22,751 nt of DNA from Candidatus Thorarchaeota archaeon (GCA_029858305.1 JAOUFI010000032.1:1-22751); one strand, 5' to 3'. Shown: positions 1-22,587, counted from the first letter of the stretch. The notes: generated by a model from the sequence alone, not told the origin. Made by a program: numbers and translations.

Positions 1-1646
1 TCGGTGAATCGGAATGGGCCAGCGTTCACGTTGGGCTCTGCTGGGTCGAATACTGGGTTCCAAGTGTTCCAGCCTGCATAACCAATACCGTCCACATTAT
101 TGAAGATGTGTTTGGGTATGATTGTGTCGTAGGCGAAGTTGGAGAAGTGCCAGTAGGACTCAGTGCTGAACTCGATGACGACTCTGTATGGTGTAGGCGC
201 ATATGCTGCAACCAGGTCACCAATATCAGTTCCAGCAGGGTTACCATAGACATAGCTCTCAAAGGCATATGTCATTGAGAAGGCAACGTCATCAGCTGTC
301 AGCTGTACACCATCGGACCATGTTGCGTTCTGGATGATATCGACTGTGAATCTGGTGTGACCGTCAGGAACATCCGAGTTGTCAGCATGGGTCTCAATAA
401 GCATACTCTCAGCAAGATCTGGGTAGGGGTTGAGGTCTGGACCAAAGCTGTACAGTGCAGGCCAGAGGTTCTCAAGGATCGCTGCGGAGTAGGCTGAGTT
501 TGTGACATAGATGTTGAAGCTGTCAGGTTCTTCACTGATAGCGACAGACAATGTACCACCAGTCGTACCATCAATTTCGTGAACTTTTCTCATGGTCCAA
601 GGACCAGTGATGTATCTACCAAGGTCAGCTACATGACCAGTGAACTTGTCGTTCCTGTATGCCTGGTTGTAGGTGTTCTCATAGACAACAAGTCGTGGAA
701 CGTTGTACAAGAGAATCTTCTGCATCTCAGCAGCAGCCTCAAAGACTTCCTCATAGGTTGTACCGTAGAGGAGTTGGGCTCTCCATGAGTCATAGGTCTC
801 GTTCCTGAAGTTGGTTGGATTCTGGTACGGTGTGTCAGCATACTCTGACCAATACTCATATGCGAGCCAGTCAACATCATTGCTGTAGTAGTTAAAGGCA
901 TAGAAGACCATATCGTACAAACCATGGCTGTCCAACCTCGAGATGTACTCGTTGAAGTCAGCTGCACGGGTACGAGCATTGATGTGGAGGTCTGTTAGAG
1001 CATCAACACCAATCTGTGCGGTACCACCTGCAATCTCCTGTGATGCTGATGAATACTCGATCTCGATGTCGAATGGTTGGCCACGGTATGTTCTGAAACC
1101 GTCACCACCGATTACGAAGTATCCTGTAGCATCAAGAAGGGCATTACCAATCGAGGACTGATCAGTGTAGTAGTGGTACGTGAACTCATCCTCGATACAC
1201 CAACCGTTAGGGTAGGGCACAAGGGAGTCTTGTTCCTGTGACCATCCATCCATGATCTCGGAGGTTACTCTTGTCTTGTCAAACGCATAAGCAAAGGCTC
1301 TTCTCAGAACACTCTCATTCAATGGCGCATCGCGACAGTTGATTGTGATGTGTCCATAGCCATTTCTTAATGCGCTGAAGATGGAAATATCTTCATCTGC
1401 ATCGAGGGTATCGTAATGCACCGGATCGAAGAAAGCGTTATCCATCTCAATTTCTCCGGCTTGCATTGCCAGCACCCTCTGATCCTGGTTCGATATCACC
1501 TTGTATACAATCTTGTCCACATATGGACCTTGATTCAGATCTGCAGGTATTGTCATTGCTGTTGAAACAGCTGGAGAGAATACCATGAAAAGAAACACTG
1601 AAACAAAGGTGATAGCTACCAGTCGTTTATTACGATCGGAAAGCAT
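1..1646 (-). CDS. Peptide/oligopeptide ABC transporter substrate-binding protein (family 5, OppA/DppA-like), circularly permuted; 3' end lies outside the window
   Basis: Not in the ORF track. Manual translation from ATG 1646 gives 548 open codons to the window edge: signal-like N-terminus MLSDRNKRLVAITFVSVFLFMVFSPAVSTA, then GPYVDKIVYKVI..RVLAMQAGEIEM, LRRAFAYAFDK, GGTLSVAISEEPDSFN, PDLAES, ATWSDGVQLTADDVAFS, NAGPFRF. AGGAG/GAGTGA upstream; strong C-ending codon bias. Confidence 0.93.
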   Translation of the reverse strand, partial: MLSDRNKRLVAITFVSVFLFMVFSPAVSTAMTIPADLNQGPYVDKIVYKVISNQDQRVLAMQAGEIEMDNAFFDPVHYDTLDADEDISIFSALRNGYGHITINCRDAPLNESVLRRAFAYAFDKTRVTSEIMDGWSQEQDSLVPYPNGWCIEDEFTYHYYTDQSSIGNALLDATGYFVIGGDGFRTYRGQPFDIEIEYSSASQEIAGGTAQIGVDALTDLHINARTRAADFNEYISRLDSHGLYDMVFYAFNYYSNDVDWLAYEYWSEYADTPYQNPTNFRNETYDSWRAQLLYGTTYEEVFEAAAEMQKILLYNVPRLVVYENTYNQAYRNDKFTGHVADLGRYITGPWTMRKVHEIDGTTGGTLSVAISEEPDSFNIYVTNSAYSAAILENLWPALYSFGPDLNPYPDLAESMLIETHADNSDVPDGHTRFTVDIIQNATWSDGVQLTADDVAFSMTYAFESYVYGNPAGTDIGDLVAAYAPTPYRVVIEFSTESYWHFSNFAYDTIIPKHIFNNVDGIGYAGWNTWNPVFDPAEPNVNAGPFRFT

Positions 1647-1895
1647 ATTTTCACTCTATCTCCTTTCCCTTCCGAGTCGAATTCGGATGAGACCGTCCCT
1701 CGAGCAGTCAATAAAAGCATTGAGTATTCAGTAAGCGTTTGTACGTCAGGGTATGGCGCAGCGATGGTCAAATAGTTAGCGAATAAAAAAATAGAACGTC
1801 GAAATAAATTGTATACTAATGCCAAGAGTAATTTTGAAGTCGCAAGAAAAACAAAGGATGGGTCGAAAAAAAGAACGACCCAAACCGTTTACCGA

Positions 1896-2969
1896 CTACC
1901 CGTACTTGATTCGGGGATCTAGCACTCCATATAATAGGTCTGCAACAAAGTTGGCTAAAATCGCCGTGATTGCGATAATCATGAAAATCGTCTGGATGAC
2001 CGGGTAGTCCATTAGTAATAGACTATCAAAAATGAACCGCCCAAGTCCTCGCCACGTGAACACCGTTTCAGTAAGCGTTGCCCCGTTGATGAGGAAGCCA
2101 AAGTTCAGCGCGATAATTGTGACCATCGGCAACATAGCATTTTTCAGACCGTGTTTGTAGAGTACTTGATTTTCATCTAGACCCTTTGCACGTGCTGTTA
2201 GAATATAATCCTCGGTCATGACGTCAATTAAATTATTGCGCATATAGAGGAAATATCCACCATAACCACCTACACCAAGGGTAATCATGGGTAGGAATAG
2301 ATGGTGAAGCACATCACCTGCGACCATCAGAGCGCCTAACGGATTTCCTCGTGCCACTTCCCAAACATCATAACTGATAGTACCAAATTGTGGAAATCCA
2401 ATTCGAATTCCCCACATCGCTTCAGTCCATTGAGGAAGCATAAAGCCGAAGATAAGCAAGAGCATCATCCCAAGCCAAAACACGGGCAAGGCATAAATGA
2501 ACAGAGCTACAGTGACAGCGCTAACATCCTTTCTTGATCCAGGGTCAGCAGCCACCTTCACACCAGTCCATATTCCAAGAAGAATGGATACCATTGAAGA
2601 CGTTCCCATCAGCAAGAGTGTGTTGGGAAGACGTTCAACGATTGAATCCATTACTGGTCGCTGGGTCAAGAACGAGACTCCGAAATTGCCTGTGAACATA
2701 CTGACAATGTATCGCCAGAACATATAGATCCAATCAAAAATATCTGGATTTGGTACAAGACCAAAGTTCACATACATCTGTTCTAGCAAGTCCTGCGTCA
2801 GATTGCGGCGAAGTTCGTCGCTGAGCATCAGGCTAACCGGACTAGCTCCAAACAAGAAAGTCGGGAGTCGGAATAGAAAGAAGTTGAAACAAACTACAGC
2901 TACTATAAGTAAGAACATGTAGATTGATCGTCGGATGACATATTCACGAAGTCCCATTACCAGACTCAC
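1896..2969 (-). CDS. dppB: Peptide ABC transporter permease (DppB/OppB family)
   Basis: GNFGVSF, RLPNTLLL, LPVFWLG, HLFLP, EAA-loop EDYILTARAKGL, ETVFTWRGLGR, DLLYGVLDPRI. GTG start at 2969 (alternative ATG 2957). Confidence 0.95.
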   Translation of the reverse strand: MSLVMGLREYVIRRSIYMFLLIVAVVCFNFFLFRLPTFLFGASPVSLMLSDELRRNLTQDLLEQMYVNFGLVPNPDIFDWIYMFWRYIVSMFTGNFGVSFLTQRPVMDSIVERLPNTLLLMGTSSMVSILLGIWTGVKVAADPGSRKDVSAVTVALFIYALPVFWLGMMLLLIFGFMLPQWTEAMWGIRIGFPQFGTISYDVWEVARGNPLGALMVAGDVLHHLFLPMITLGVGGYGGYFLYMRNNLIDVMTEDYILTARAKGLDENQVLYKHGLKNAMLPMVTIIALNFGFLINGATLTETVFTWRGLGRFIFDSLLLMDYPVIQTIFMIIAITAILANFVADLLYGVLDPRIKYG

Positions 2970-3071
2970 TCCAATTATATCGGTACATAGTGATACTAAG
3001 TACCATCACGTAATTTTGAAAATATCTTCCTAATAAGCGTAGTGCTCTCGGCTGACGCAAGGAAGGAACGG

Positions 3072-3112
3072 TAAAAAAGATAGAAGGATAGGAAGCAACA
3101 CCGCTTCCTATC
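3072..3112 (-). terminator. Hairpin plus U-tract downstream of dppC
   Basis: Perfect 10-bp inverted repeat GATAGGAAGC (3087-3096)/GCTTCCTATC (3103-3112), followed on the minus strand by CTTCTATCTTTTTTA; starts about 15 nt after the dppC stop. Confidence 0.6.
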
Positions 3113-3126
3113 TTAATATTGATTTC

Positions 3127-4698
3127 TTACCTTTCTCTCAGTCTTGGATTGAGCACTTGGTCTAATGTATGCCCCACAAATGTGAATGCAAGAGAGAGTA
3201 ACGTAATCATCAGACCTGGAAAGAGAACTACCCACCAGGCACCAGTACTGAATGCGCCACCTGTTCTAGCATCCGCAAGCATTCTGCCCCAGCTTGGATC
3301 TTCAGGATCAGTCAATCCTAGGAATGACAACCCAGCCTCTGATAGGATTGCTCCGACAACACCAAGAGTGATATTGGCAAACAATATTGGTGTTACATTG
3401 GGCAGGATATGGCGGAACATGATATAGGTGTCTGACGCACCGATTGCTCGTGCTGATTCGACATAAGCCTTGTTCTTCTCAGCCAAGACTTGAGACCGTA
3501 TCAGCCGCGATGTTCCAGTCCAACCTAATATAGCTATGACGATGATGATGTTTTGTATCGATGCTCCTAGAAAGGCTGCCAACACCATCATCAATGGCAA
3601 TCCTGGAATGACCAGTAGGAAGTCAACAACACGCATCAAAACTTCATCGACTTTACCGCCGAAATATCCTGCAACCATTCCGACAATAACGCCCACGGCT
3701 GTGGCTAGACTAGTCGCAAGAATACCGATGATTAAAGATATTCGACTGCCGTAGATAAGTTGTGAATATGCATCAGCACCCCAATTTGTGGAACCCATAA
3801 TACCAAAGTATTCTCCATAGGCTACCATCTTCAGGGTGGTGAATTTGAATGTCACAGTACCAGTATAATTCTGCCAAGGGTATCCGAACGTATCGCTATC
3901 AAACCAGCGATAAGGAGCTAGACCAATAACAATACGAACGTCATTTGAAGGATCCTGCTGCGTTCCGTTCACAACAATCATACCATCGAAGACGGACTTA
4001 AGGCTGAGATAGTTCATACTAATACGTTTCTCTTGAACTGCCTCAACGTAGGTTGCTTCTCGAGACTCGTAGACTTTGGTCCACTCATTAGATGAATCGA
4101 TGAGCCAGACATAGACCCTAAACATAAGATTATTGCCAACCGGACCGCCTGGAGCAAAGTCACCAGTCAATGTTGTTCCAAACGAAACTGACATGTTCAC
4201 ATCACTAGGTCGGTTGTTATAAGGCCAAGTGAAGTTTTGCTCAAAATAAACGAAATCGCCGTAGTCTGGTTTGATACCTTCAGGATCAATATCAAAGTCG
4301 AGTTGAGTCCCAGCAGTATGCGACCAGGTAAGATTCACATAACTTTGATTATTCGTATCACTTAACGGAACATGTATACCACTAAATTCGCCATGAGTTC
4401 CATTTGCTCGAATTAATGGTGTTTCCTCTAGATTGGGATCTGTGAGAACATCACCGGTGATAACGCCGTTAGGATCAAACACTGACAACCACGATGGCAT
4501 CAAGTATGTAGGTGCTACCTTTGCCTGTGGTGTTGGATCATGTGTGATTAACCCATCTGCGAATATTGCCATACCTACAAAAATCAAGATTAGAGCCAAT
4601 CCTACAAGCCCAATCTTATGTTTGCGGTACTCTTTCCAGAAACCAGTAATGCTAACATACCAATTACTATCTCTCCAACCCTTATGGGATCCGGACAA
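3127..4698 (-). CDS. dppC: Peptide ABC transporter permease (DppC/OppC family) with a large extracytoplasmic insertion
   Basis: OppC N-terminal pattern WKEYRKHKIGLVGL, GSTNWGADAYSQLIYGSRISL, GYFGGKVDEVLMR, YVESARAIGAS, EAGLSFLGL, SWGRML, LDQVLNPR. TTG start preceded by GGAGG. Confidence 0.95.
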   Translation of the reverse strand: MSGSHKGWRDSNWYVSITGFWKEYRKHKIGLVGLALILIFVGMAIFADGLITHDPTPQAKVAPTYLMPSWLSVFDPNGVITGDVLTDPNLEETPLIRANGTHGEFSGIHVPLSDTNNQSYVNLTWSHTAGTQLDFDIDPEGIKPDYGDFVYFEQNFTWPYNNRPSDVNMSVSFGTTLTGDFAPGGPVGNNLMFRVYVWLIDSSNEWTKVYESREATYVEAVQEKRISMNYLSLKSVFDGMIVVNGTQQDPSNDVRIVIGLAPYRWFDSDTFGYPWQNYTGTVTFKFTTLKMVAYGEYFGIMGSTNWGADAYSQLIYGSRISLIIGILATSLATAVGVIVGMVAGYFGGKVDEVLMRVVDFLLVIPGLPLMMVLAAFLGASIQNIIIVIAILGWTGTSRLIRSQVLAEKNKAYVESARAIGASDTYIMFRHILPNVTPILFANITLGVVGAILSEAGLSFLGLTDPEDPSWGRMLADARTGGAFSTGAWWVVLFPGLMITLLSLAFTFVGHTLDQVLNPRLRER

Positions 4699-5400: not shown

Positions 5401-5483
5401 CGACCTCATGGCAGCGATATCCTAAGAAGGGCAGGGCCTATGCCATGCCCAGAGCCGCAATTGGCTCGATGGAGTGTACAATC

Positions 5484-6473
5484 ATGCCCTTGCTGGACAT
5501 TCGAAATCTTAGGATGTATTACCAAACACAGAAGGGTCTTGTAAAAGCAGTCGACAATGTCTCCCTGACGCTGGAGCCTGGTGAGTCTATTGGACTAGCA
5601 GGTGAATCAGGTTGTGGTAAGTCAAGTCTAGCATATTCAATTATGCAGCTACTTCCTCCTGCAGCGAATATAGTCGGTGGAAATGTGTACTTCAAGGGTG
5701 ACGACTTAATTCGCAAGACCGCGAAGGAAATGCGTGACATCCGTTGGAAGAATGTTGCTATCGTCTTCCAAGGCGCTATGAACGCGCTTAACCCCGTCTT
5801 TGAGATAGGAGAACAGATTGCTGAGGCTATCCTCATGCATGAGAATGTGACTGAGGAAGAGGCTCTAGACCGTTGCGCCAAGCTCTTCGAGATGGTAGGT
5901 CTGGATCCTGGTCGTATCCATAACTATCCTCACGAGTTTTCAGGAGGTATGCGACAGAGAGCTATGATTGCAATGGCTCTTGCGTGCAATCCGGACCTTG
6001 TTATTGCGGATGAGCCCACAACAGCCCTTGATGTCACAATCCAAGCGCAAATCCTCAAGCTGATGCAAAAGCTCCAGAAAGATCTTGGCTTATCACTCAT
6101 TTTGATCACACACGACCTGAGTGTTATTGCTGAGACCTGTGATAAGACTGCAATCATGTATGCAGGAAAAATTGTAGAGCTAGCTGATGTAGTATCAGTG
6201 TTTAAAGATCCAATTCATCCTTATGCTACTGGCCTAGTAGGTGCAATCCCAAGTATGGTGAAAGCAGAGAGGAAGAAACTTACCTCAATTCCTGGTTCTC
6301 CACCAGACTTGATTTCACCTCCGCCAGGTTGTAGATTCCATCCTCGATGCCCATATGCTCAAGATATATGTTCGAAGGAAGACCCACAACCACTTGAGAT
6401 AGAGCCAGATAGGTTTGTTTCCTGTCACTTTGCTGAGCAGCTTAGAGGCGAGATTGAAATAGACTTGGAGTGA
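5484..6473 (+). CDS. dppD: Peptide ABC transporter ATP-binding protein (DppD/OppD family)
   Basis: Walker A GESGCGKS, signature FSGGMRQR, Walker [20 protein letters not shown] motif and C-terminal [14 protein letters not shown] 5484 (MPLLDIRNL) has GGAGTG upstream and is preferred over the track start at 5445. Confidence 0.95.
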
Positions 6474-6476
6474 TAG

Positions 6477-7538
6477 ATGATGACAATAGACGAATCAAGA
6501 GTTCTACAGGGTTCAGATGATATCAAAGATGGTGAAACTTTGATTGCTGTCAGAAACATGCGGAAATGGTTTGCAGTAAACACCGGTTTCCTTTCATCAA
6601 TGCTGTATAAACAGGAACTCTTTGTGAAGGCAGTAGATGGAGTTACATTTGATATCAAGAAGGGAGAAGTACTTGTACTTGCAGGGGAGTCAGGTTGTGG
6701 AAAAACAACAACTGGCAGATGTGTTCTTCACTTGGAAACTCCTACCGACGGAGATGTAATCTATGCAGGTCAGAACCTCGCAACCCTCGATAGGAATGAG
6801 ATTAAGGAACTCAGGAAACGAATGCAGATTACATTCCAAGACCCCTACGAATCTCTCAATCCGAAACAGAGCATCTTCAGTATTGTACAGGAACCACTCA
6901 TGGTCCATAAAATTCCTCTCTCTCCAAGCCAGAGGCGTCAGAGAGTCCTAGAAGCAATGGAGAGTGTTGCTCTCACACCAGCTGAAGATTACATTGATAG
7001 GTATCCTCATGAACTCTCAGGAGGACAGAGACAGAGAATATCAGTAGCAAGAGCACTTATTCTCCATCCCGAATTCATGGTGGCAGATGAGCCGGTTTCA
7101 ATGCTTGATGTGTCCATCCGTGCAGAGATTCTGAACCTACTCTTGAACCTACGTGAAGAACTTGGACTCACTTACTTGTTCATAACTCATGATCTAGCTG
7201 TTGCAACATATATTGCTGATAGGATTGCAATCATGTACCTTGGAAAAGTAATGGAGTTAGGTCCAGCCCATGATGTCGCTTTTACTCCACTACATCCATA
7301 TACTCGAGCATTGATATCAGCTGTGCCATCTGGAGACCCAACTGTCAAACGACGCACTGAATCATTGAAGGGAGAACCTCCGAGTCCTATCAATGTACCC
7401 TCAGGTTGTCGGTTCCATCCCAGATGTCCATATGCTCAGGAAATCTGTGTACGGGAAATTCCGGATGATAGAGACATGGGTGATGGACATATTGTGGCGT
7501 GCCACTTTGCTGGTGAATTGCCAGAAGTTCGTCTTTAA
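6477..7538 (+). CDS. dppF: Peptide ABC transporter ATP-binding protein (DppF/OppF family)
   Basis: [59 protein letters not shown]; starts 3 nt after the dppD stop. Confidence 0.95.
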   Translation: MMTIDESRVLQGSDDIKDGETLIAVRNMRKWFAVNTGFLSSMLYKQELFVKAVDGVTFDIKKGEVLVLAGESGCGKTTTGRCVLHLETPTDGDVIYAGQNLATLDRNEIKELRKRMQITFQDPYESLNPKQSIFSIVQEPLMVHKIPLSPSQRRQRVLEAMESVALTPAEDYIDRYPHELSGGQRQRISVARALILHPEFMVADEPVSMLDVSIRAEILNLLLNLREELGLTYLFITHDLAVATYIADRIAIMYLGKVMELGPAHDVAFTPLHPYTRALISAVPSGDPTVKRRTESLKGEPPSPINVPSGCRFHPRCPYAQEICVREIPDDRDMGDGHIVACHFAGELPEVRL

Positions 7539-7615: not shown

Positions 7616-8053
7616 ATGACTGAAACTAGCGATCGACGACGTATGTTAAGAGCGATTAGGAAGTGCTTAGTCGACGGAAAAGAGTATTTCCAAAAGGCAA
7701 TGGACACACTTGATGATATCGGGAGAGGTTCCATTGGAGTAGGAATGACTCCACTAGTGGGGGGTTATGCGATTAAAGATCCCAAGAGCAACTTCCGTAG
7801 TGCATTAATTGAAATTGACTCAGCAGAACGAGCCCTTGAGCCGCTTATAACACGATTCAAGGATGGACGAGTCAATGAGTCACATTTCAAATCAAGAGAT
7901 GCAATAGTCTTGTTGGGCGATCTTGCAGGAGTCGACTATAATATTATAGTAAGGAAGCTTGCAGAACAGACTGGTCGAGAATCTACTTGGTATAGACTGA
8001 AAGAACTCAGAGCGAAGATTGAAGACCTACTAAGACTAATAGCCGAGGATTAG
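7616..8053 (+). CDS. Hypothetical protein, predicted alpha-helical bundle
   Basis: 145-aa ORF with GGGTGA RBS-like motif upstream; amphipathic helical pattern; no recognised family motif. Confidence 0.8.
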   Translation: MTETSDRRRMLRAIRKCLVDGKEYFQKAMDTLDDIGRGSIGVGMTPLVGGYAIKDPKSNFRSALIEIDSAERALEPLITRFKDGRVNESHFKSRDAIVLLGDLAGVDYNIIVRKLAEQTGRESTWYRLKELRAKIEDLLRLIAED

Positions 8054-8145: not shown

Positions 8146-8817
8146 ATGTTTAGCTCTCCTGACCCAATAGGTATAATCAAAGAACTTGAGCGTGCAGAAC
8201 ATGTTCTCGATGTTCTCCTGCGACAACTTACAAGCATCTACACTAATCTTGAGCCTTTGGAGAGAGATCTTAGAGTTGATGATTTTTCTTCGAGTGGTAT
8301 GTTTGTCCCAGGACTTGCAACTGGAATTGTTTGTGCCTTAACTGCAGATATCAAGGGAGACCCAATATACAAAGCTCTTGAATCAATCAAAGGCAGAGGC
8401 CTGAAATTACCAGCTATAATCAAGGGGGCAGATCGAACAGAGGCACCAGTAATATGTGATTCTATCATGAAGATAATCAGAGCGCAATTCAATCTCAAAA
8501 CGACTCGATTCATTGTTAATCTCAGATGGTCATCATTACCGTCTATAATTGATAATGATAACGTTATGATCTTAGGGACAAGATACTTCCATGGCGATAG
8601 GAAAGTAATCGAGGGATTCAAGAATAGACTCAAAGGATTAAATCTTGAAGTGCTTGAAGATAATGGCGAATTTGGAGGAGGATTACTAACATACAAACTG
8701 ACGAATTTTGCGAAGGAAATTGATAGTATAACAGTTCTAGAGCTGACTCTCTCTTCGGCCCTTTGCGAGAATATTACTAAGGTTGCAAAGATTTTCGAGG
8801 CTATTACAATTCCTTAG
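8146..8817 (+). CDS. Hypothetical protein resembling the N-formylglutamate amidohydrolase / Zn-exopeptidase fold, apparently lacking catalytic residues
   Basis: The C-terminal half (FIVNLRWSS..VMILGT..LEVLEDNGEFGGGLLT..ITVLELTLS) mirrors the FGase pattern (DxHS..dxxLGt..v..N.PF.GG.IT..QIEI). Its stop abuts the next gene. The CDS is well supported; the family call is tentative. Confidence 0.6.
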   Translation: MFSSPDPIGIIKELERAEHVLDVLLRQLTSIYTNLEPLERDLRVDDFSSSGMFVPGLATGIVCALTADIKGDPIYKALESIKGRGLKLPAIIKGADRTEAPVICDSIMKIIRAQFNLKTTRFIVNLRWSSLPSIIDNDNVMILGTRYFHGDRKVIEGFKNRLKGLNLEVLEDNGEFGGGLLTYKLTNFAKEIDSITVLELTLSSALCENITKVAKIFEAITIP

Positions 8818-8826
8818 GTGTTTATT

Positions 8827-11800
8827 ATGAGTTCAATCTCAGATGCTTCAGAGATGCAGCTACCTTTTCCTCATGGAATAGAGATCGAACTTCAAGTTAT
8901 TCGCAAGGACGGCACTTGGATTCGTGGCGAAGACATTCTTGAAATCTTCGATAAGATTGTATCTAGTGCAAAGGGACTTCTGGATAAGAAAATTCGATTG
9001 TCTACAGTGGAAACCGTTAGAGAGAAGTATGAGCAGTCTTCACAAACAGAAGAAGGAGAAAGAGGTTCAAGAATAGTTGCCATCTACAAGGATCCAAAAG
9101 GGCAACCCAGAGAGTATACTTTGTTGGGACATGATCCTAACGTTGTGAGTCTAACCTGGATATTAGAGGTCGCGACACCGCCATGCACCACACTTGAAGA
9201 ACTCGCGTGGTGGATTCAGACTTTAATAGCTATATCATATGAGTCTCTACCCAAAGACTCTCAGGCAATTTTAATTTCTACCGGATTAAATCCAACTCAA
9301 GAATATCTGCGTAATCTATCTTTTGGGGAACATCATCACATTCTCAGTCAAGAGGCCGATGAGTCTGTTAGAATCGGTGTATACAATATGATTCGAAATT
9401 TCATCCCTCATCTTATTGCTCTGTCAGTAAATTCTCCTTTTGAAAACAAGAAGCCAAGTGATGAAATCACTATTGATGAGAATGGGATTGTTCGAGCTCC
9501 AAGATGCAAAAGATCAATTAGACTCTATAGAAATACAACACAGATGGGACCAATTAATGAGTTTGAGATGATACCATACATCCGCATAGCTGACAAAGAT
9601 GCCTTTGCAAAGCATGTAAATAGAAGCTATGCAAGAATGGTGGATTGCTATCCCTTCACAGATTATGGTACAATTGAGCTTCGAATTTTCGATACACAAT
9701 TAAGTATCCCAAGAAGAATAGGTTTAGCTTTAATTCTTCAAGCGCTCGCCTTGAAAGCACAGAGGATGATTGAGAGCGGAAAATCAATACCAGATGTAGG
9801 ACCAAAGTCACTTAGCTCAAACAGAGCTTCTGCAGTTGCTGCTGGCCTCTGGGGTCCTTTCAAGCTAGGTGAAGGATCAAATGAGTTCCTCACCATATAT
9901 AACCATCAAGTATCTGATGATGGTACTATTGACAATAGACATCGGAATAGATTTCTTGGGGATGCTGTAGTATCAATGCTTTATCTAATCCGAGAAGAGC
10001 TTGATGAACTCAAGGTAATTGAGAATCCATTCATACAGGCATTGCTTGTATCTGTATTTGGCAGTGAGTATGCCAATCCACGAACAACAGAAGCTGATTT
10101 TCAGCTCGATTTCTATGCTAAATCTGATTACAACATGGTCGTTCTATTGAAACGTCTTGCAGAGGTTACTCGGGAATGTAGCACAAATTGGCTATACGAT
10201 CCTATCGAGGGCACGCCTCATCTTCCTACATGGCTATGTTGGTGGAAAGGGCTCGAGCCAGAGATTGTTATAGACACTGACAGAACATTCGCAGGTCAAG
10301 AGGCAGAGTTCTCGATACTGATACGTAATAGTACAGGTAGGAATATTGACGGTCTAACTATTGAGTATTCAATTGAAGATTCCCTGAGAAATATAGTAGA
10401 TAGCAATCTTATCACAATTGGTAGTATTGAAACTGGAGAAATACATGTTTCTCGAGTTGCTTTCACAACTCGAAAGGACACCACCGCCTATAATATAATT
10501 ACAGAAGTAGGTTTTGTTGGACGTAAAATAAATCTTACAAGTACAATTAACATGTACTGGATGAGTGCATCAATACGTCCGGGCACAACGACGCAATTTG
10601 CGGATGGAAAGGCAGCAGTTCTCTTCAATGGCGAAATTGAAACCAATTATCCTTCAGGCTCATTCGTAAGCTGCCAAATCAATATCCTAGCGCCAAATCT
10701 GGAACGCCTTATAATTGGGACTACCGAAATACTCAAAGTCGAAGGAGGAGAAATAACTACATTTGATAGCTCATTATTTCCGCCTCTAGTGATTCCTCCC
10801 GATGTAGCAGAAGGTGTTGAGAGATGTGTACTTCAGATGCGTTTGATGAATGAAGAAGGCATCGAGATAGCAGAAGGAACATCAAAGCCGTTCTATGTAG
10901 GATTTGTTAGAAGAGGACCACAAGTCATTTTCGAGTCGAATATAAAGAGCAGCTATGTACCGGGAGAATTGGTCACCGGGAACATTCTAGTGAGTGATAG
11001 GAATAAAGTCATAGGACCATCTGCTAGAATGATAGTTGATTACTATGTAGAATCAGGGAAAACCATAGATATTGAAACCATACAATTTGAAGAATTCATT
11101 GGACGTAATGCATCTTTTCATTGGAGAGTCCCAAGGATTGAAGTTATGCCTCAGGTTGACAGAGTGGGTGTTATTAGAATTCGGGTGATTGAGAGAGGAA
11201 ATATTATTGCTGCTGTTGAGTCAGATAGGTTCAGTATAAATCAAGTAACAACAAGAGTCAATCTAGACTCTCTGAGAGTTCCTCAGCGTTCCCATGTCGG
11301 GGGCAAAATATCAGGATGGTTGCGGATAAGGAGAAACACTGAACAAGGAGATCCTGCGTTTCTTACTTTATCATTTGTATATCCTGACGATGATGAACAT
11401 GTAGTTCTTCGACAATCCGTAAAACAGAGCAAGAATCTATCTCTGGCCTTTGGCCCACTCACCATCCCAGCACCGAAAAAATCCACAAGTCCAAAATCTG
11501 TCATGCTAATAGCAGTGTTGAGCTACTTGGGCTTGGAGATGGATAGACGTTCAACAACAATAGATTTGGTAGGTGGACCATCAGCGGATTTTGCGAAGAT
11601 TGAATTCATCGGGCTTCCAAGTTTTACAACGCCTGATCAGATGGTTCAGGTGACACTCCAAGTTGAAAGCAATTCGATGGAAACGACTGATTGCGTACTA
11701 TCTGTAGATCTTGAATCAATTGCTGGGAACTCCAACCTAGTTGAGAGAAATATCAGCCTTGAGCTAGGAAAACTAAAGATGATTCCTATTCCCTTTAGAG

Positions 11801-12252
11801 TACCCCTCGGTGCTGAAATGAGTACTGCACACTTGAAGGCGGTCCTTCTGTGCGGCTCTCAATCATGTGGTAATAGCCAGCGGTTTAAGGTCAAGGCGAT
11901 CGAAAAACCATTCTTCAGTGTTGAATTTTCTATTAGAAATGAAGCTGGTGATGAGATACCAGGTCTCGTCGCGAGACTTACTCCTGTGGAAATCATTGCG
12001 AGTGTAGAGAGCAAAAGAGAGAATCTTCAAGGCATATCAATAAGTCTTAGAGTGATGTCAAGACGAGACATAATCAAAGAGTTTGATATACCACTCACCA
12101 ATGATAAGAAGAATACATTATCTGTAAAATGGCTAACACCACCCATCGATATTGTTACGGGTTATTTTCTTGACGCTGAAATTTCACAACACGGTCGCCC
12201 CTTACCGCACCGCGCAATTGAGATAGTGAAGAAGCAATTTACTGTCTATTAA
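8827..12252 (+). CDS. YbdK/GCS2-family carboxylate-amine (glutamate--cysteine-like) ligase fused to about six C-terminal Ig-like beta-sandwich modules
   Basis: GCS2 motifs in order: HGIEIELQV, LEVATPPC, STGLNP, FGEHHHI, IPHLIALSVNSPF, SIR, YGTIELRIFDTQ. Residues from about nt 10255 form about 110-aa beta-rich repeats. ATG 8827 follows AGGTG (track start GTG 8818). Confidence 0.88.
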   Translation: MSSISDASEMQLPFPHGIEIELQVIRKDGTWIRGEDILEIFDKIVSSAKGLLDKKIRLSTVETVREKYEQSSQTEEGERGSRIVAIYKDPKGQPREYTLLGHDPNVVSLTWILEVATPPCTTLEELAWWIQTLIAISYESLPKDSQAILISTGLNPTQEYLRNLSFGEHHHILSQEADESVRIGVYNMIRNFIPHLIALSVNSPFENKKPSDEITIDENGIVRAPRCKRSIRLYRNTTQMGPINEFEMIPYIRIADKDAFAKHVNRSYARMVDCYPFTDYGTIELRIFDTQLSIPRRIGLALILQALALKAQRMIESGKSIPDVGPKSLSSNRASAVAAGLWGPFKLGEGSNEFLTIYNHQVSDDGTIDNRHRNRFLGDAVVSMLYLIREELDELKVIENPFIQALLVSVFGSEYANPRTTEADFQLDFYAKSDYNMVVLLKRLAEVTRECSTNWLYDPIEGTPHLPTWLCWWKGLEPEIVIDTDRTFAGQEAEFSILIRNSTGRNIDGLTIEYSIEDSLRNIVDSNLITIGSIETGEIHVSRVAFTTRKDTTAYNIITEVGFVGRKINLTSTINMYWMSASIRPGTTTQFADGKAAVLFNGEIETNYPSGSFVSCQINILAPNLERLIIGTTEILKVEGGEITTFDSSLFPPLVIPPDVAEGVERCVLQMRLMNEEGIEIAEGTSKPFYVGFVRRGPQVIFESNIKSSYVPGELVTGNILVSDRNKVIGPSARMIVDYYVESGKTIDIETIQFEEFIGRNASFHWRVPRIEVMPQVDRVGVIRIRVIERGNIIAAVESDRFSINQVTTRVNLDSLRVPQRSHVGGKISGWLRIRRNTEQGDPAFLTLSFVYPDDDEHVVLRQSVKQSKNLSLAFGPLTIPAPKKSTSPKSVMLIAVLSYLGLEMDRRSTTIDLVGGPSADFAKIEFIGLPSFTTPDQMVQVTLQVESNSMETTDCVLSVDLESIAGNSNLVERNISLELGKLKMIPIPFRVPLGAEMSTAHLKAVLLCGSQSCGNSQRFKVKAIEKPFFSVEFSIRNEAGDEIPGLVARLTPVEIIASVESKRENLQGISISLRVMSRRDIIKEFDIPLTNDKKNTLSVKWLTPPIDIVTGYFLDAEISQHGRPLPHRAIEIVKKQFTVY

Positions 12253-12602: not shown

Positions 12603-13529
12603 ATGTTTGAGATACTAGCGCATCCGGCCGTTTCCGGATTATTGGTGATGGGCATTGTTGGAGCCTTGGCCTATAAGGCTCATTTTGTTGATATATCAGG
12701 TCTAGTCAGTGCTTTTATCGTGGGATTCACTATCTGGTATACTGGTGGAGTCTCAGCTTTTGTAATCATTCTATTCTTCTTTATGAGCGCGGGTATTGCT
12801 ACAAAATACAAGTACAAGGTGAAAGTACAAAAGAATGTTGCTCAAGAAGGCAAAGGAAAAAGATCATGGAAAAATGTATTCGGGAGTGGCCTCATTCCGA
12901 TGATTTTCTCTGTAGCAATGTATCTTACACGACTATCGCCAGATTTAGCAGCAGTTGGATGGCCATTCTTTTTGTTTGGTGGATATGTTGGAGCAGTCGC
13001 AACAACATCCGCGGATACTCTAGCCAGTGAATTGGGTGTCTTTAGTAAGAGCAAACCAAGATTGATAACAAACCTTCGCAGGAAAGTTCCTAGCGGGACA
13101 ATTGGTGCAGTATCCCTTTTGGGAGAAGGTGTAGCTTTGCTCGCAGGTCTTTTTATAGGACTTCTAGCTGTGTCTTTCGCAATTTTCACGCCCGGATGGG
13201 TACCTGCTGTAACAACCACTGAGCATGTGTTATTCCTAATTCCATTGGCGGTGCTAACTGCATTCATTGGATGTAATGTTGATAGTTTCCTTGGAGCTGC
13301 TTTTCAGAACAGATACGTTTGTGAGATATGTGGAGCAGTCATTGACAAAGAATTTCATTGCGATTATGAAACCAAATACATCGGTGGTTTCAAGAGCTTC
13401 ACTAACATGCATGTGAATTTTGGTTCATCAGGGATGGGAGCGACACTTGGGATTCTTCTTGGAGCAGGTCTATTTGTGTGGATTTTGGGCGGCCTTTTCT
13501 TCTGGATTGCGGCTTCATCAAGTAGCTAG
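12603..13529 (+). CDS. DUF92 / TMEM19-family integral membrane protein
   Basis: FFFMSAGIATKY, GKRSWKNVFGSG, ADTLASELG, GAVSLLG, DSFLGAAFQ, CxxC..HC, N.HVN; multiple TM segments. Confidence 0.9.
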   Translation: MFEILAHPAVSGLLVMGIVGALAYKAHFVDISGLVSAFIVGFTIWYTGGVSAFVIILFFFMSAGIATKYKYKVKVQKNVAQEGKGKRSWKNVFGSGLIPMIFSVAMYLTRLSPDLAAVGWPFFLFGGYVGAVATTSADTLASELGVFSKSKPRLITNLRRKVPSGTIGAVSLLGEGVALLAGLFIGLLAVSFAIFTPGWVPAVTTTEHVLFLIPLAVLTAFIGCNVDSFLGAAFQNRYVCEICGAVIDKEFHCDYETKYIGGFKSFTNMHVNFGSSGMGATLGILLGAGLFVWILGGLFFWIAASSSS

Positions 13530-14872
13530 ACCTTTCCAAGGCAATTTTCCTCGAATCTAATCGCATACTCAAAGGAATCCTTGATTGGAAGATTATCTGC
13601 TATCTGTTTCAAATAACCTACAACGAACCAGCGTGTCATTTCAGGAGACTTACTCGCACTCAAAATGGACATATCTCGCTCGTCGACCAAATGCAATTTG
13701 TAGCTGTTCTTTGTATCTTTGATAATAATCGCTGCATCTGTCACATCTCGAATGCGCTCAATTGGCTTTGGTGACATAGAACGAATGAGATAACGCCAAA
13801 CTTGATTTGAAAGAATGAGAGTGTCCACTTGGGAAAGAACGGGTTTCAACCAATCTAGGCCCATTTCCCAGAAGGGTACAGAACATCTATAGACAAGTGG
13901 AATTCCTTGAGCTTTAGCAAATGCGGCAATCGAAGCGGCGACCTCAACAAAGAGTTCACCAATGTACACAGCCTTTGCCTTTTCTAAGATGGACCAAGGA
14001 ACCTGGGAGGGAGAGTTGATTGAGAGGGATGTTACTGGTCCTATCCCTACGAGCATTCGTGACTTGCTGTTTTCTGTTATAATGATCGACTCATTAGTAG
14101 ACTTTTCATTCTCTACAATTATATTTGAGACATCGACACCACCTTGAATGAGTTGAGTGATGACTTCCCACCCTTCAAGGTCATTTCCCACAGATGAAAC
14201 AAGAGATGTGTCGATACCTTCTCTTGCTAGTGCTATTGCTAAATCAACTGTGGATCCTCCTGGCGACCGAATAGGCGAACTGCAGCTTGCAAGTCCTCCA
14301 GCGGGAGGTATCTTTGCACATTCGATTCGCGTATTATACGCAGATGCACCGAAAATAACGATGTCAGGTTGTGAATATTTGATGGAATCTTCAAGAATCG
14401 CTTTTGCACGAGTGCGTGCAAAAATTTCAAAAAGTCTAGATTCTGGGATGCCAAGATCTTTATAGAGAGTTGTAAGTCGAATTAAGTAATCTTCAAGTAG
14501 GAATGCAGTGAGTTCTTCAATATCGGATGGGAGACCCTTGGAATAGAATCGGGCTAGCCCCCATCCACTCTTTGTGAGTTCATGATAAACAACACGCTTC
14601 CCATTATGAATGGTCGTTGCAGTTGTGATTAGACCAAATCGGCTTAATGTTTTTAGATAGGAGAGAACGCTCTTGTTTGAGTGTTGGAGATTCTCAACAA
14701 GATCACGCTGCAAAACACGACCATCCTCATGAAAACTCGAAAGCACACTACGAGTAACTCGAGATGCCATAACGGTTCGGATGAATTCATCTCTGGCCTC
14801 TCTTTCTGAGGGAAGAAAGAGCAGATAAGGCCAAAGATGTTCAATTGGCTTTGTTTCGACCATTCCCAACAT
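13526..14872 (-). CDS. Winged-helix DNA-binding domain fused to a degenerate PfkB/ribokinase-like domain (probable ligand-sensing regulator)
   Basis: wHTH: LQRDLVENLQHSNKSVLSYLKTLSRFGLI...YHELTKSG. PfkB N-motif: PGGSTVDLAIALAREG..VSSVGND. The DTxGAGD motif is absent. Start uncertain (TTG 14878, ATG 14872 or ATG 14863); the stop overlaps the DUF92 stop (CTAG 13526-13529). Confidence 0.85.
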   Translation of the reverse strand: MLGMVETKPIEHLWPYLLFLPSEREARDEFIRTVMASRVTRSVLSSFHEDGRVLQRDLVENLQHSNKSVLSYLKTLSRFGLITTATTIHNGKRVVYHELTKSGWGLARFYSKGLPSDIEELTAFLLEDYLIRLTTLYKDLGIPESRLFEIFARTRAKAILEDSIKYSQPDIVIFGASAYNTRIECAKIPPAGGLASCSSPIRSPGGSTVDLAIALAREGIDTSLVSSVGNDLEGWEVITQLIQGGVDVSNIIVENEKSTNESIIITENSKSRMLVGIGPVTSLSINSPSQVPWSILEKAKAVYIGELFVEVAASIAAFAKAQGIPLVYRCSVPFWEMGLDWLKPVLSQVDTLILSNQVWRYLIRSMSPKPIERIRDVTDAAIIIKDTKNSYKLHLVDERDMSILSASKSPEMTRWFVVGYLKQIADNLPIKDSFEYAIRFEENCLGKV

Positions 14873-14956
14873 CTTCAAATATCAGTTTACATGTTGAATC
14901 AATGTACAATCGTACCTATGTAGTTTACTAAATTACACTTCATAGGAGGAGAGTTA

Positions 14957-19721: not shown

Positions 19722-21011
19722 CTATTCTGAACCACGTATTACTACGGCAAATTCACCTGCGAGCTTACCATACCATTCAAGCAGGTCTCGCATATTGTCC
19801 ACATGACGGTAAGTACCATTTCCATACTGCGCGATGGCTAGCATCAATTCTTCATCAATTTCACTTCGTTCTCCAAGACCTATGCTGTAAATTACTAAGC
19901 GGGATCTGTCAGGAAAACGCTCTTTGAGAATCTTCAGTGGTGGAGGACCAGATGTCGTCATGCCATCAGTAAGCATGATGAGCATTGTTGGTTTTTCCGG
20001 ATCTCCAAACTCCTCCATGATATCACTTGCTTTTGCAAGAGCTGATCCCATGTCTGTAAGAGTCCCGCCCTCTTCAACCTTATCTACAACATGGGTACTG
20101 ATTATTTGAAGACCCAATGCTTTCTCTCGACCTGTACACTCTACAAAAGGCTGAACTTCTCCTGTTTCTGAGTTGAGAAATGTCATTTCACTGATATCTT
20201 TCTCGAACGTTATCACGCCGACTTTCTCGCCATAACCGCGCCCAACTTTTTCTGCGAGATATAACAAGACAGCCATAGCTGCCGCTTCAGCGCGACTGAC
20301 ATTTTTCCCTTCTTCAAATCGATTAAGAAAGGCTTGTACCTCAGGACTATCACCAGCTAAATCTTTCAGACCTTCTCGTGCATGAGCGATATCTTGAACA
20401 GGAACATCCGTTGTCTTCATTGAGCCACTAGTGTCGACACAAAGAACTGCATTGAAAGGTGTGGCAATCCCTACAGTCTTAAATTCATAACCAGTCTTTT
20501 CGCGAAGAGCCTCAAATGCAAGCTTTGCAAAGTGCTTTCCTGAGAGGGCAGGCTTAGTATTAAGAATCTCAACCTTCACATCAAGCTCAGGCCAGTTGAA
20601 TGACATTCCAGGATAGACAAGCCGGCCGCCTATGATATTTTCGAGTGAATGAACCTTCTCGGCAGCTCTAGAAACAAGGTCCTCAGTATTGGCATCTTCC
20701 GTAAGAGGTTTGAGTCCAAACTCTACATACTCTAGCGCAACCATATCTTGATCATATAGTGCCACCTCAACAATATCGCCCTCCATAAGCAGTGATGCCT
20801 CAAGAACAAGTGTATCAACGATAATCTTGTTTTCAGATATATCATTACCCTTGCGAATCTCTGCAGCCCCCCAGAAACTACTCTGTGGATCTTCGAAGAT
20901 GACAATGGAGCCTATATCTGCATCTAGAGTGTCAGCTGTCTTTGGGTGGAGATTCGCAAAGCCCCTAAGGTCTCCACCATCAACAATTTCTAATTCAAGT
21001 TTCTTGGTGAT
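19722..21011 (-). CDS. Cdc48/p97 N-domain-like (double-psi beta-barrel) plus von Willebrand factor A fusion protein, about 429 aa
   Basis: vWA MIDAS: CVDTSGSM, GTLTDMG, MLTDG; also IYSIGLG. The frame stays open 75 codons upstream of the track ATG (20786) and encodes (I)TKKLELEIVDGGDLRGFANLHPKTADTLDADIGSIVIFED...KIIVDTLVLEASLLMEGDIVEV. GAGGAGG lies 8 nt before ATC 21011. Confidence 0.85.
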   Translation of the reverse strand: MTKKLELEIVDGGDLRGFANLHPKTADTLDADIGSIVIFEDPQSSFWGAAEIRKGNDISENKIIVDTLVLEASLLMEGDIVEVALYDQDMVALEYVEFGLKPLTEDANTEDLVSRAAEKVHSLENIIGGRLVYPGMSFNWPELDVKVEILNTKPALSGKHFAKLAFEALREKTGYEFKTVGIATPFNAVLCVDTSGSMKTTDVPVQDIAHAREGLKDLAGDSPEVQAFLNRFEEGKNVSRAEAAAMAVLLYLAEKVGRGYGEKVGVITFEKDISEMTFLNSETGEVQPFVECTGREKALGLQIISTHVVDKVEEGGTLTDMGSALAKASDIMEEFGDPEKPTMLIMLTDGMTTSGPPPLKILKERFPDRSRLVIYSIGLGERSEIDEELMLAIAQYGNGTYRHVDNMRDLLEWYGKLAGEFAVVIRGSE

Positions 21012-21019
21012 GGCTGTTG

Positions 21020-21065
21020 CCTCCTCTAGTCCAATATGTATTCATTTTGTGTGTGTTGTTATAAA
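21020..21065 (-). promoter_or_regulatory. TATA box and Shine-Dalgarno for the Cdc48N-vWA gene
   Basis: Minus-strand TTTATAA (21065-21059) and GAGGAGG (21026-21020) in the 70-nt gap after the amidohydrolase stop. Confidence 0.55.
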
Positions 21066-21081
21066 GAATATGAGGTTCACG

Positions 21082-22587
21082 CTATCGAAAATATGATACT
21101 ACTTTCTCATGTAAATTCTTGCCTGTTTCTAGTGTAACCGCGTGATCTCTTAAAGATCGTATCAACACGGAATTATTAAGCTGGGATGCGTTTTGAATCG
21201 TTTCAATCCGTGTCATACCTGATGTACTTAGGAGTGAGCAACTGAGCAAACTGTTTGGTCCTCTTCGCATCCAAAGGTGAATCTCTCGATCGTTGTTTTT
21301 TGTTCTTAGGGTCATCACATAAGAATCAAGGTACACGCCATTAAAACCACCTCTAGATACAGGCAGTGGTTCAGGCCATGTTCCTTCCGGCGGGAGCATT
21401 ACATCGAGAGAGCATAGATCCCAATCTTCTTGATTAATGAGTGATATGATTGAGTTTTCCAATTGATGTTGGTTTGATTTATCTTGGTCTAAACAGTCAT
21501 ACACGACTGGAGTGGCGGAACGCCCAGTTTCAGTTGCAAACGGTTTCTGAGCAAGCATGAGTGCATTCCCACCCAGTATTCGTTGAATATCTGCCAAGGT
21601 TCCAGGGAATTTCCTTGATAGGAGGTAGAGAATGATGTCAGCGGCCTGAACAGAGAGGAAGCTGAAATCAGTTCCAAAGAGAATTTTCTCTGACCATGGG
21701 CTGTTCAATCGACCTAGTCTCTCAACAGCAGACTCAAAGAGGACAGGAACATCTAGATCGTGCAGAGTAGATGTTTCAGCAAAGATAGCTGGGTCCCGCA
21801 ATGCATCAAAGAGCTGAGGATCACCGGGAGACATTCCACAATGAGCGAGAACGACTCTCAATCCCCTAATTGCTGTTCCACATTCAGGATCGTTCTTTAT
21901 GGACTCTACTAAAGTCTTAATTCGTAGAACAGTGTTAATATTCCTTGTATCAAATATAACAGGGATATTTAGCTCGCCTGCTCGCTTTACGATATTTTTT
22001 GTTAATTCTCCCTCAATGGAGTCAAGAAAGAGCTGTGCTAGAGGGTGAAGCTTTAGACCCCGCAATCCAAGAACCTGAACACTGCGTTCAAGCTCTTTTA
22101 CGGCTAAATCTTTCTGCCTTGTTCCATCCATTGGATTAACACGTGCAAATCCGATCATGCGTATCGAATGTGGCGCTCGAGTTGTCCACCCTGCAATTTT
22201 ATCATTTGATACTTTGAAGGATGGAGCTTTTGCTGTTTCAGGTTTTGAGTAATCATCAGTATAAGGAAAGACAATCGTTCTATCTACCAACCAGCCATGA
22301 TTCAATCGCTCCCAACTTTTGTGGCTATTGAAACACCGATTAGCAAAATCGCTGGGAGCGACAGCAATTGGCTCGAAAAGTAGTGCATCCTCATCTCTGA
22401 GGTTTTTTGCTATTTTCTGCATCTCAAACCACAATTGGGCATAGAATTCATATGCACCAGCAGGAGTATTCGTATGGCCTTTTTCTCGACCCATGTGATG
22501 ATGCGCATCTACGATATAGAGCCAAAATTCATCACCTTTCTTGATACCTCGTGAGGGTTGGTCGTCTATTGCTCGTACGATGAGCAT
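21082..22587 (-). CDS. Amidohydrolase superfamily (amidohydro_2-like) metal-dependent hydrolase with C-terminal extension
   Basis: VDAHHH, GFARVNP, GLRGLKLHP, VLAHCG, ILFGTDF; GGAGG upstream of the ATG. Confidence 0.9.
   Translation of the reverse strand: MLIVRAIDDQPSRGIKKGDEFWLYIVDAHHHMGREKGHTNTPAGAYEFYAQLWFEMQKIAKNLRDEDALLFEPIAVAPSDFANRCFNSHKSWERLNHGWLVDRTIVFPYTDDYSKPETAKAPSFKVSNDKIAGWTTRAPHSIRMIGFARVNPMDGTRQKDLAVKELERSVQVLGLRGLKLHPLAQLFLDSIEGELTKNIVKRAGELNIPVIFDTRNINTVLRIKTLVESIKNDPECGTAIRGLRVVLAHCGMSPGDPQLFDALRDPAIFAETSTLHDLDVPVLFESAVERLGRLNSPWSEKILFGTDFSFLSVQAADIILYLLSRKFPGTLADIQRILGGNALMLAQKPFATETGRSATPVVYDCLDQDKSNQHQLENSIISLINQEDWDLCSLDVMLPPEGTWPEPLPVSRGGFNGVYLDSYVMTLRTKNNDREIHLWMRRGPNSLLSCSLLSTSGMTRIETIQNASQLNNSVLIRSLRDHAVTLETGKNLHEKVVSYFR

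Follow-up and report, generated by a model that had tools for sequence, protein, structure and literature searches.

A YbdK-related ligase with a six-sandwich arm in a co-inherited gene set of Asgard archaea

The Pup ligase PafA and the depupylase Dop share a superfamily fold with carboxylate-amine ligases of the YbdK/GCS2 type, and their system combines a ligase with an enzyme that breaks the bond and with co-encoded accessory proteins. We know of no YbdK in a fixed four-gene set. A further arrangement is that of FluG, an amidohydrolase fused to a glutamine-synthetase-like gamma-glutamyl ligase according to the abstract of its report, whose authors suggest a so far unidentified pathway of metabolism or signalling that runs through a gamma-glutamylated intermediate (PMC6478659). 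Here we describe a gene of Candidatus Thorarchaeota archaeon (positions 8827..12252, plus strand) in a window of 22,751 nucleotides (GCA_029858305.1, JAOUFI010000032.1:1-22751), by which we mean the whole stretch of DNA analyzed. The gene joins a ligase domain related to YbdK to a long arm of six beta-sandwiches and is co-inherited with genes for an amidohydrolase, a protein with a von Willebrand factor type A (vWA) domain and a 223-aa upstream partner. No known archaea are closer relatives of eukaryotes than the Asgard archaea, and the conserved machinery specific to their lineages is for the most part uncharacterised. Full-text searches of the literature, supplementary tables excluded, returned no description of this ligase-arm architecture or gene set.

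The reading frame is uninterrupted from the ATG at 8827 to the stop at 12250-12252 and encodes 1141 amino acids. Neither a transmembrane segment nor a signal peptide is present in the protein, whose highest Kyte-Doolittle mean over 19 residues is 1.2; this lack of a hydrophobic segment fits a cytoplasmic, ATP-using enzyme, as an earlier reading made from the sequence alone (the sequence-only reading) had claimed. In an AlphaFold2 model built from 33 aligned orthologues (mean predicted local distance difference test score, pLDDT, of 76), residues 11-456 form an alpha/beta domain, and we place the carboxylate-amine ligase domain at residues 10-460 (8854..10206, plus strand) based on TIGR02050, a YbdK profile, the fold and the invariant residues. 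The five motifs that had been listed as a signature of such ligases are all found in order, i.e., GIEIE (17-21), EVATP (114-118), GEHHH (167-171), LIALSVNSPF (196-205) and TIELRIFD (282-289), and align with the equivalent segments of E. coli YbdK and a Salmonella homologue. Residues E21, E114, E168, H169-171, E284 and R286 are invariant in the 33 orthologues, which reach down to 51% identity, and the metal/ATP residues are largely retained in 15 distant relatives at 27-40% identity. The ligase domain is the best-conserved part of the protein (mean identity 74%), and because 30% of its columns are invariant across such divergent orthologues, this conservation exceeds chance by far. With its catalytic residues retained, the domain is apparently an active enzyme.

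Comparison with solved structures places the model closest to the YbdK homologue 1tt4 (Z 24.4, 320 residues aligned, root-mean-square deviation 4.0), followed by Dop (9cku; Z 19.8, 316 residues), a plant glutamate-cysteine ligase (GCL; Z 19.2), PafA (4bjr; Z 17.6, 326 residues), GshAB (Z 16.5) and glutamine synthetases (Z about 13-14). The proposed GCS2/YbdK-type fold is thus confirmed together with its catalytic residues, and Dop and PafA rank second and fourth among the closest solved folds. Kinship to PafA and Dop is one of fold and not of sequence membership, as a family profile made from 15 diverse relatives and searched against all PDB chains (E up to 1) found YbdK-type structures including 1r8g (E 1.6e-16 and 5e-16) and GshAB only, and no PafA or Dop chain. 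YbdK/GCS2 enzymes are the nearest relatives by sequence and have the fold, the order of motifs and the metal/ATP residues in common with the Asgard ligase. However, the latter scores below curated family cut-offs, carries an extra insert of ~75 residues behind the first strand, lacks ~20 YbdK residues before the histidine motif (a gap in the profile alignment), has replaced a loop arginine and adds an arm of about 680 residues. No Pfam family besides GCS2 matches the protein at E up to 1, and among 22 distant relatives the GCS2 model scores 18 above and one below its cut-off, with no match for the other three. The ligase therefore belongs to a distinct, mainly Asgard clade beside YbdK/GCS2 and is not a member by curated thresholds, and genes annotated as "glutamate-cysteine ligase family protein" very probably carry the wrong name. 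A loop reading TEEGERGSR was considered as a family feature and rejected; it is invariant in the Thorarchaeia and not kept across the wider family.

Behind a conserved linker, the residues from 474 on form six all-beta units in the model, mostly at pLDDT 70-90, and begin where the sequence-only reading had placed them. The first sandwich, D1 (residues 474-577; 10246..10557; all six on the plus strand), resembles the Ig-like domain of 5axg (Z 13.2) and a macroglobulin (MG) domain of alpha-2-macroglobulin (Z 10.9). It is followed by D2 (578-696; 10558..10914), whose profile is in register in related proteins of family f2 and of the Odin type; by D3 (697-807; 10915..11247), the least conserved unit with 36% mean identity and 2 of 111 columns invariant; and by D4 (808-919; 11248..11583), which shows faint similarity to D3 and is better conserved (59%; 12 of 112 columns). 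D5 (920-1026; 11584..11904) is close to Spo0M (Z 12.3), a C3 MG domain (Z 11.8) and the CARDB structure 3idu (Z 11.0), and D6 (1027-1141; 11905..12249) to the Wzt carbohydrate-binding domain (Z 10.8). Invariant columns make up 2-11% of the arm units compared to the 30% of the ligase domain. The end-pattern that had been suggested as common to most units is weak: only D3-D4 is detectable among the 15 profile-profile pairs (57% probability, E 1e-4), and the remaining 14 stay below 12%. The units are thus barely related in sequence and best described as structural repeats, not sequence repeats.

Foldseek searches with the whole model gave as their best PDB matches the MG arrays of C4b, C3, C5, A2ML1, CD109 and bacterial alpha-2-macroglobulin (E 1e-19 to 1e-15), yet at TM-scores of only 0.1-0.17, so that the likeness to macroglobulins holds per domain only. 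Single arm domains reach VIA-align Z scores of 10.8-13.2 to Ig-like, MG, CARDB, arrestin-like and carbohydrate-binding sandwiches. The arm thus has in common with the arrays of alpha-2-macroglobulin, C3/C4/C5, CD109 and 3idu that sandwiches of ~100-110 residues follow one another (per-domain Z 11-13). Unlike alpha-2-macroglobulin and complement proteins, it lacks a thioester domain (no helical domain of this type appears in the all-beta model) and a signal peptide. Pfam including CARDB (PF07705) gave no match to the arm at E up to 1, and the best ESM Atlas scores of 0.90 (unnamed clusters) and 0.88 (a CARDB-labelled cluster) serve as a lead only. A C-terminal QFTVY-type ending is present in 33 of 33 Thor orthologues and missing in other long forms; we therefore rejected it as a docking or substrate motif and take it to be the final strand of D6.

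The fusion of ligase and arm is no assembly artefact, a possibility left open when it was read from a single sequence, since 111 of the 120 best database relatives are full-length (1130-1153 residues, 50-88% identity) and a genome scan found 72 ligase loci, nearly all labelled Thorarchaeota (the Thor loci). An exhaustive search of 1.84 billion representatives returned 153 matches. Full-length collinear relatives are found among them at 29-33% identity, including one cluster labelled Odinarchaeota, and a D1-like module lies behind the ligase core in the Odin-type protein, the f2 protein and one protein of 3551 residues. As the D1-D4 profiles match in order in the Odin-type protein and those of D1, D2 and D6 in the f2 protein, the arm is older than the split between Thor and Odin lineages. 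The ligase core alone occurs at 30-40% identity in proteins of 425-3804 residues, in contexts that include coiled coils, N-terminal transmembrane segments, zinc ribbons, extra sandwiches, a vWA fusion and giant proteins of 2232-3804 residues. Short forms are labelled Helarchaeota, Heimdallarchaeota, Hodarchaeota and Promethearchaeota, and one is encoded by the cultured Promethearchaeum syntrophicum (protein P0303).

A quick tree of 45 rows, from which three partial outgroup rows were dropped and whose deep branches are provisional, places the ligase family on a long branch apart from YbdK-like sequences and tracks taxonomic families. Arm-bearing forms (Thor, f2, Odin-type, f15, f16 and Hod-labelled) cluster with support 90, and short forms (Hel-, Loki/Prometheoarchaeum- and Heimdall-labelled) with support 99. 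The same tree contains a distant clade of ligase cores of ~500 residues on a long branch (P0329, P0325 and P0331; 28-30% identity), and because one of its proteins is labelled Methanomassiliicoccales and lies on a 3.2-Mb contig, the family may not be strictly confined to Asgard archaea. In one metagenome-assembled genome (L001 and L030, same label) the ligase occurs twice, with 85% and 53% identity to that of the window; this could point to a paralogue or to a bin of mixed origin. In three genomes (G358:C41, G334:C3 and G368:C1), the ligase match is interrupted by an in-frame stop or falls into two pieces, and pseudogenes, sequencing errors or recoding could be the cause.

Directly upstream of the ligase, at 8146..8817 (plus strand), lies the gene of the 223-aa partner, and the two are translationally coupled: the AGGTG Shine-Dalgarno-like site of the ligase overlaps the TAG stop of the 223-codon gene, and the ligase ATG follows 9 nt past this stop. 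The model of the partner (pLDDT 86) shows an N-terminal helix of 45 residues and then an alpha/beta domain that resembles pyroglutamyl peptidase I (Z 11.2) and N-formylglutamate amidohydrolase (Z 11.1) over ~150-160 residues, as well as M42 aminopeptidases, nucleoside phosphorylases and poly-gamma-glutamate hydrolases (Z 9-10.4). Purine nucleoside phosphorylases score nearly equally (Z ~10), so the match is to a peptidase/phosphorylase fold and not specific. Only D172 and G177-179 are invariant among 26 sequences, in which neither the Cys/His/Glu triad of C15 peptidases nor zinc ligands are conserved. The partner therefore has the alpha/beta fold of C15 and N-formylglutamate amidohydrolase enzymes plus an N-terminal helix and without their catalytic residues, and we infer that it is a non-catalytic subunit. 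Its sequence diverges fast (20-75% identity).

The partner gene is present in 60 of the 72 loci; one locus is undecided, five lack upstream sequence, and in six Thor loci there is no room for it since another upstream gene of 145 codons stops 24-219 nt before the ligase. For comparison outside the Thorarchaeia we clustered the open reading frames (ORFs) of 18 loci from 11 other Asgard families. A partner homologue lies directly upstream of the ligase in the three arm-bearing loci, and 12 short-form loci have a different upstream protein, of ~600-645 residues in eight and shorter, split or cut in four, for which no Pfam match was found. The partner profile matches the last 150 residues of the Loki-type upstream protein (92% probability, E 6e-7), which share the Asp and glycine turn of the partner (8 of 12 loci tested), so that a partner-type domain precedes the ligase in 15 of the 18 loci. 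Other candidates did not hold up: the 214-aa upstream protein of L104 is in register with the partner profile without being significant, and the 508-aa upstream protein of L106 does not match it. The N-terminus of the Loki-type upstream protein has only a weak likeness to the start of D5 (pairwise E 0.008, profile probability 7%). Profiles of the partner, the amidohydrolase and the Loki-type upstream protein found no fused copies among 333 proteins.

Two further genes belong to the set. A metal-dependent amidohydrolase of the Amidohydro_2 type is encoded at 21082..22587 (minus strand; PF04909, E 3e-12, 47.3 bits against a cut-off of 26.4); D27, H29, H31, H181, H249 and D307, which comprise the H-x-H motif, two histidines and an aspartate, are invariant in 16 of 16 sequences, and from these residues the enzyme looks active. 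The vWA protein is encoded at 19722..20786 (minus strand; Pfam VWA_2, 37.8 bits, cut-off 27), in a frame that probably starts near 21011. It has a complete metal ion-dependent adhesion site (MIDAS), with D118, S120, S122, T244 and D274 (D-x-S-x-S, Thr and Asp) invariant in 15 of 15 sequences. A natural fusion of vWA and ligase core exists in the metagenomic protein P0174 (962 aa), whose residues 85-409 match residues 38-349 of the window vWA protein (E 4e-26).

The vWA protein is also 80-99% identical across the Thor family, compared to 44-85% for the ligase and 47-84% for the amidohydrolase of the same genomes, and thus seems to be under unusually strong constraint for a vWA protein. Its frame remains open for 85 codons upstream (20787-21041, minus strand) without ATG, GTG or TTG, and the extension adds ~75 conserved residues, which can be aligned to the N-domain of homologues from outside the Thor family. 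An isoleucine codon, ATC at 21011-21009, lies 8 nt behind GAGGAGG (21026-21020) upstream of the ORF, an ATC, ATT or ATA codon follows a GGAGG-like site in eight of the nine Thor vWA loci compared, and in two Thor loci a stop lies only four codons upstream of the putative start. The start is thus likely to be non-canonical and conserved, with gene callers truncating a protein that would be ~429 aa long. A CDC48_N-like barrel in the N-domain, for which L104 gave one sub-threshold match (22.9 bits, cut-off 35.1), was rejected, and the extended frame of the window vWA has no such match.

The distribution of these genes was surveyed by searching the same 400 Asgard genomes from 33 families with three queries. 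The ligase (E up to 1e-5) has matches in 254 genomes, the amidohydrolase (E up to 1e-25) in 242 and the vWA protein (E up to 1e-25) in 246. All three occur in the same 14 families and are missing from all 106 genomes sampled from the remaining 19. Within the Thor family each query lacks a match in 10 of 85 genomes, and eight genomes lack all three genes, six of which are 91-99% complete; such joint absences inside an otherwise positive family point to co-loss. Discordant genomes are few and mostly incomplete; G315 is 97% complete and has no amidohydrolase or vWA gene and only a divergent ligase match. The ligase is single-copy in the genome of the window, and most genomes listed have one match, with two in families f15 and f16 and in some fragmented assemblies. 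The gene set is vertically inherited and mostly single-copy.

The genes are also often adjacent. Among the 18 non-Thor loci, 15 have an amidohydrolase homologue. In nine of these it is the immediate neighbor of the ligase, in four the vWA gene comes between the two, in L108 it lies two genes away and in L115 the distance is about 4.5 kb. A vWA homologue is present in nine of the 18 loci and lies directly beside the ligase in five. Families f15 and f16 have two ligase paralogues, each with its own amidohydrolase and vWA genes beside it, which indicates that the set was duplicated as a unit. The gene context of the ligase, with its non-catalytic partner, amidohydrolase and vWA protein, is that of a multi-protein set and not of a metabolic operon.

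We favor the reading that the ligase is a cytoplasmic, ATP-dependent amide ligase acting on a protein, a peptide or an assembly that is held by the arm and the partner, though we hold it tentatively and at a little less than an even chance. The ligase would activate a carboxylate as acyl-phosphate and couple it to an amine, and the arm together with the coupled, non-catalytic peptidase-fold partner would position the large substrate. The co-inherited metal amidohydrolase would reverse or process the amide bond, and the MIDAS-vWA protein would be an adaptor or a target. The parts would then be physically associated, with the ligase as writer and the amidohydrolase as eraser on a macromolecular substrate, for which a protein or peptide is plausible. 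The macromolecule-modifying ligase envisaged in the sequence-only reading, with its putative protein substrate and putative glutamylation chemistry, is favored by the presence of Dop and PafA among the four closest folds and by the multi-protein gene set.

Several points weigh against this reading. The protein scores just below the GCS2 cut-off of Pfam (PF04107; 20.3 bits, cut-off 21) and far below that of NCBIfam TIGR02050 (E 1.8e-15, 57.1 bits, cut-off 176.4). The second arginine of the superfamily sits in the loop preceding strand 5, according to PMC2588565; here the D-x-R-P of this loop reads DCYP, and the substitution that had been picked out from a single sequence turned out to be a trait of the whole family, with arginine in 0 of 15 diverse relatives. 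In the window, 7.5-9 kb separate the ligase from the amidohydrolase and vWA genes, which are on the opposite strand. The 72 Thor loci share the order of two oligopeptide-type ATP-binding cassette (ABC) ATPase genes, the 145-aa gene, the 223-aa gene, the ligase and a DUF92 membrane protein, with a HEAT-repeat protein, the vWA protein and the Amidohydro_2 protein 4.4-9.3 kb further on; since the whole neighborhood is syntenic, adjacency within the Thorarchaeia says little. Likewise, related genomes are not independent, and the phyletic match overstates the support. The six Thor loci with a full-length ligase and no partner indicate that the partner is not obligatory. Lastly, FluG pairs a ligase of the same superfamily with an amidohydrolase. 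By description, its ligase half is of the type I glutamine-synthetase-like and not the GCS2 type, and it is fused to the amidohydrolase, unlike the Asgard enzymes on separate genes; the FluG abstract mentions no arm, vWA protein or partner (PMC6478659).

FluG leads to the main rival explanation, i.e., that the ligase product is a gamma-glutamyl-type amide of a metabolite or short imported peptide and is then processed by the amidohydrolase, with the arm serving oligomerisation or localisation only. The proposed FluG pathway is a comparable case, going by the abstract (PMC6478659), and free amino acids are the substrates of the nearest relatives, YbdK and GCL, according to the literature cited in PMC2588565. 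In the Thorarchaeia, moreover, the two ABC ATPase genes of the oligopeptide type precede the ligase on its own strand. However, this transporter linkage is not seen outside the Thorarchaeia, and metabolic enzymes do not typically come with Ig-like arms, a vWA fusion, coiled-coil or giant-protein contexts, a MIDAS-vWA companion or a non-catalytic partner. We regard such a small-molecule pathway as a real possibility, if on the unlikely side.

The preferred reading of a ligase for large substrates can be taken one step further, to four genes that would form an Asgard-specific, reversible protein modification, chemically akin to pupylation and independently evolved. In this scheme the ligase would write, the amidohydrolase would erase, the vWA protein would read or present a carboxylate-bearing target and the dead partner would hold the end of the substrate. 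The hydrolase of such a system would be a TIM-barrel metal amidohydrolase, in contrast to PafA/Dop, where it is a paralogue of the ligase. No genes for a Pup-like tag or a proteasome were noticed on the gene maps of the window and the 18 distant loci, which show ORFs of at least 80 aa and were not subjected to a dedicated search. Taken as a whole, this scheme seems doubtful to us.

A third explanation is that the ligase domain binds a ligand without catalysis and that the protein is mainly structural. It would account for the scores below curated cut-offs, the lost loop arginine and the long conserved loops with low model confidence, such as residues 202-247. However, no variation is seen in the metal/ATP glutamates, in the histidine cluster or in the strand-5 arginine, and a scaffold is hard to reconcile with the ligase domain being so much more conserved than the arm, which makes this explanation highly unlikely. 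Least probable of all is an anti-viral or conflict system with the vWA protein and effector enzymes, since, although vWA proteins with enzymatic partners are known from conflict systems and the partner evolves fast, PADLOC families match none of five proteins, the ligase is single-copy in the genome of the window with one match in most genomes listed, synteny is stable in 72 loci, the vWA protein varies little within the Thor family (80-99% identity) and the ligase tree tracks taxonomic families.

A complete oligopeptide-type ABC transporter lies directly upstream (5445-7538 on the plus and 3-4698 on the minus strand), with its two ATPase genes on the ligase strand and 77 nt before the 145-aa gene; this order is held in 58 of 72 Thor loci and was not seen outside the Thorarchaeia. 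The 145-aa protein (7616-8053) has no Pfam, PADLOC or meaningful NCBIfam match and no relative in the 18 non-Thor loci, and we therefore left it out of the set. In families f2 and f3 (Odin-type), a protein of ~800 residues is encoded directly upstream of partner and ligase on the same strand; that of L103 (5462-7879, plus strand) has an EAP30/Vps36 (ESCRT-II-like) C-terminal domain (E 3e-19), that of L104 (12060-14444, minus strand) clusters with it, and the EAP30 gene of the window's genome lies elsewhere, on contig C168. The 145-aa protein shows no likeness to the EAP30-domain protein that takes its position in f2. Loki-type loci have two clusters of small ORFs near the vWA or ligase genes, one at L111:2441-2854, L112:14278-14670 and L113:19030-19422 and a second at L114:6186-6641, L116:5394-5771 and L119:15642-16019; the members at L111 and L114, one scanned per BLAST cluster, have a Roadblock/LC7 domain. 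The product of 13526-14878 in the window (minus strand) has 450 aa, of which only residues 172-355 form a PfkB-type kinase domain; its ~170 N-terminal residues have no Pfam match. The 350-nt gap 3' of the ligase contains short unconserved frames only, and Rfam and tRNA scans of the window gave zero matches.

The gene set described here is built around an enzyme that has the Pup ligase and the depupylase among its closest structural relatives. If the ligase modifies proteins, the set would be a new conjugation system in Asgard archaea, and a reversible modification of the kind outlined above would add a third chemistry of protein conjugation in prokaryotes, with carriers among the lineages labelled Thor, Odin, Hel, Loki/Prometheoarchaeum, Heimdall and Hod. 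If the product is a metabolite instead, the same genes would define an unknown Asgard-specific compound.

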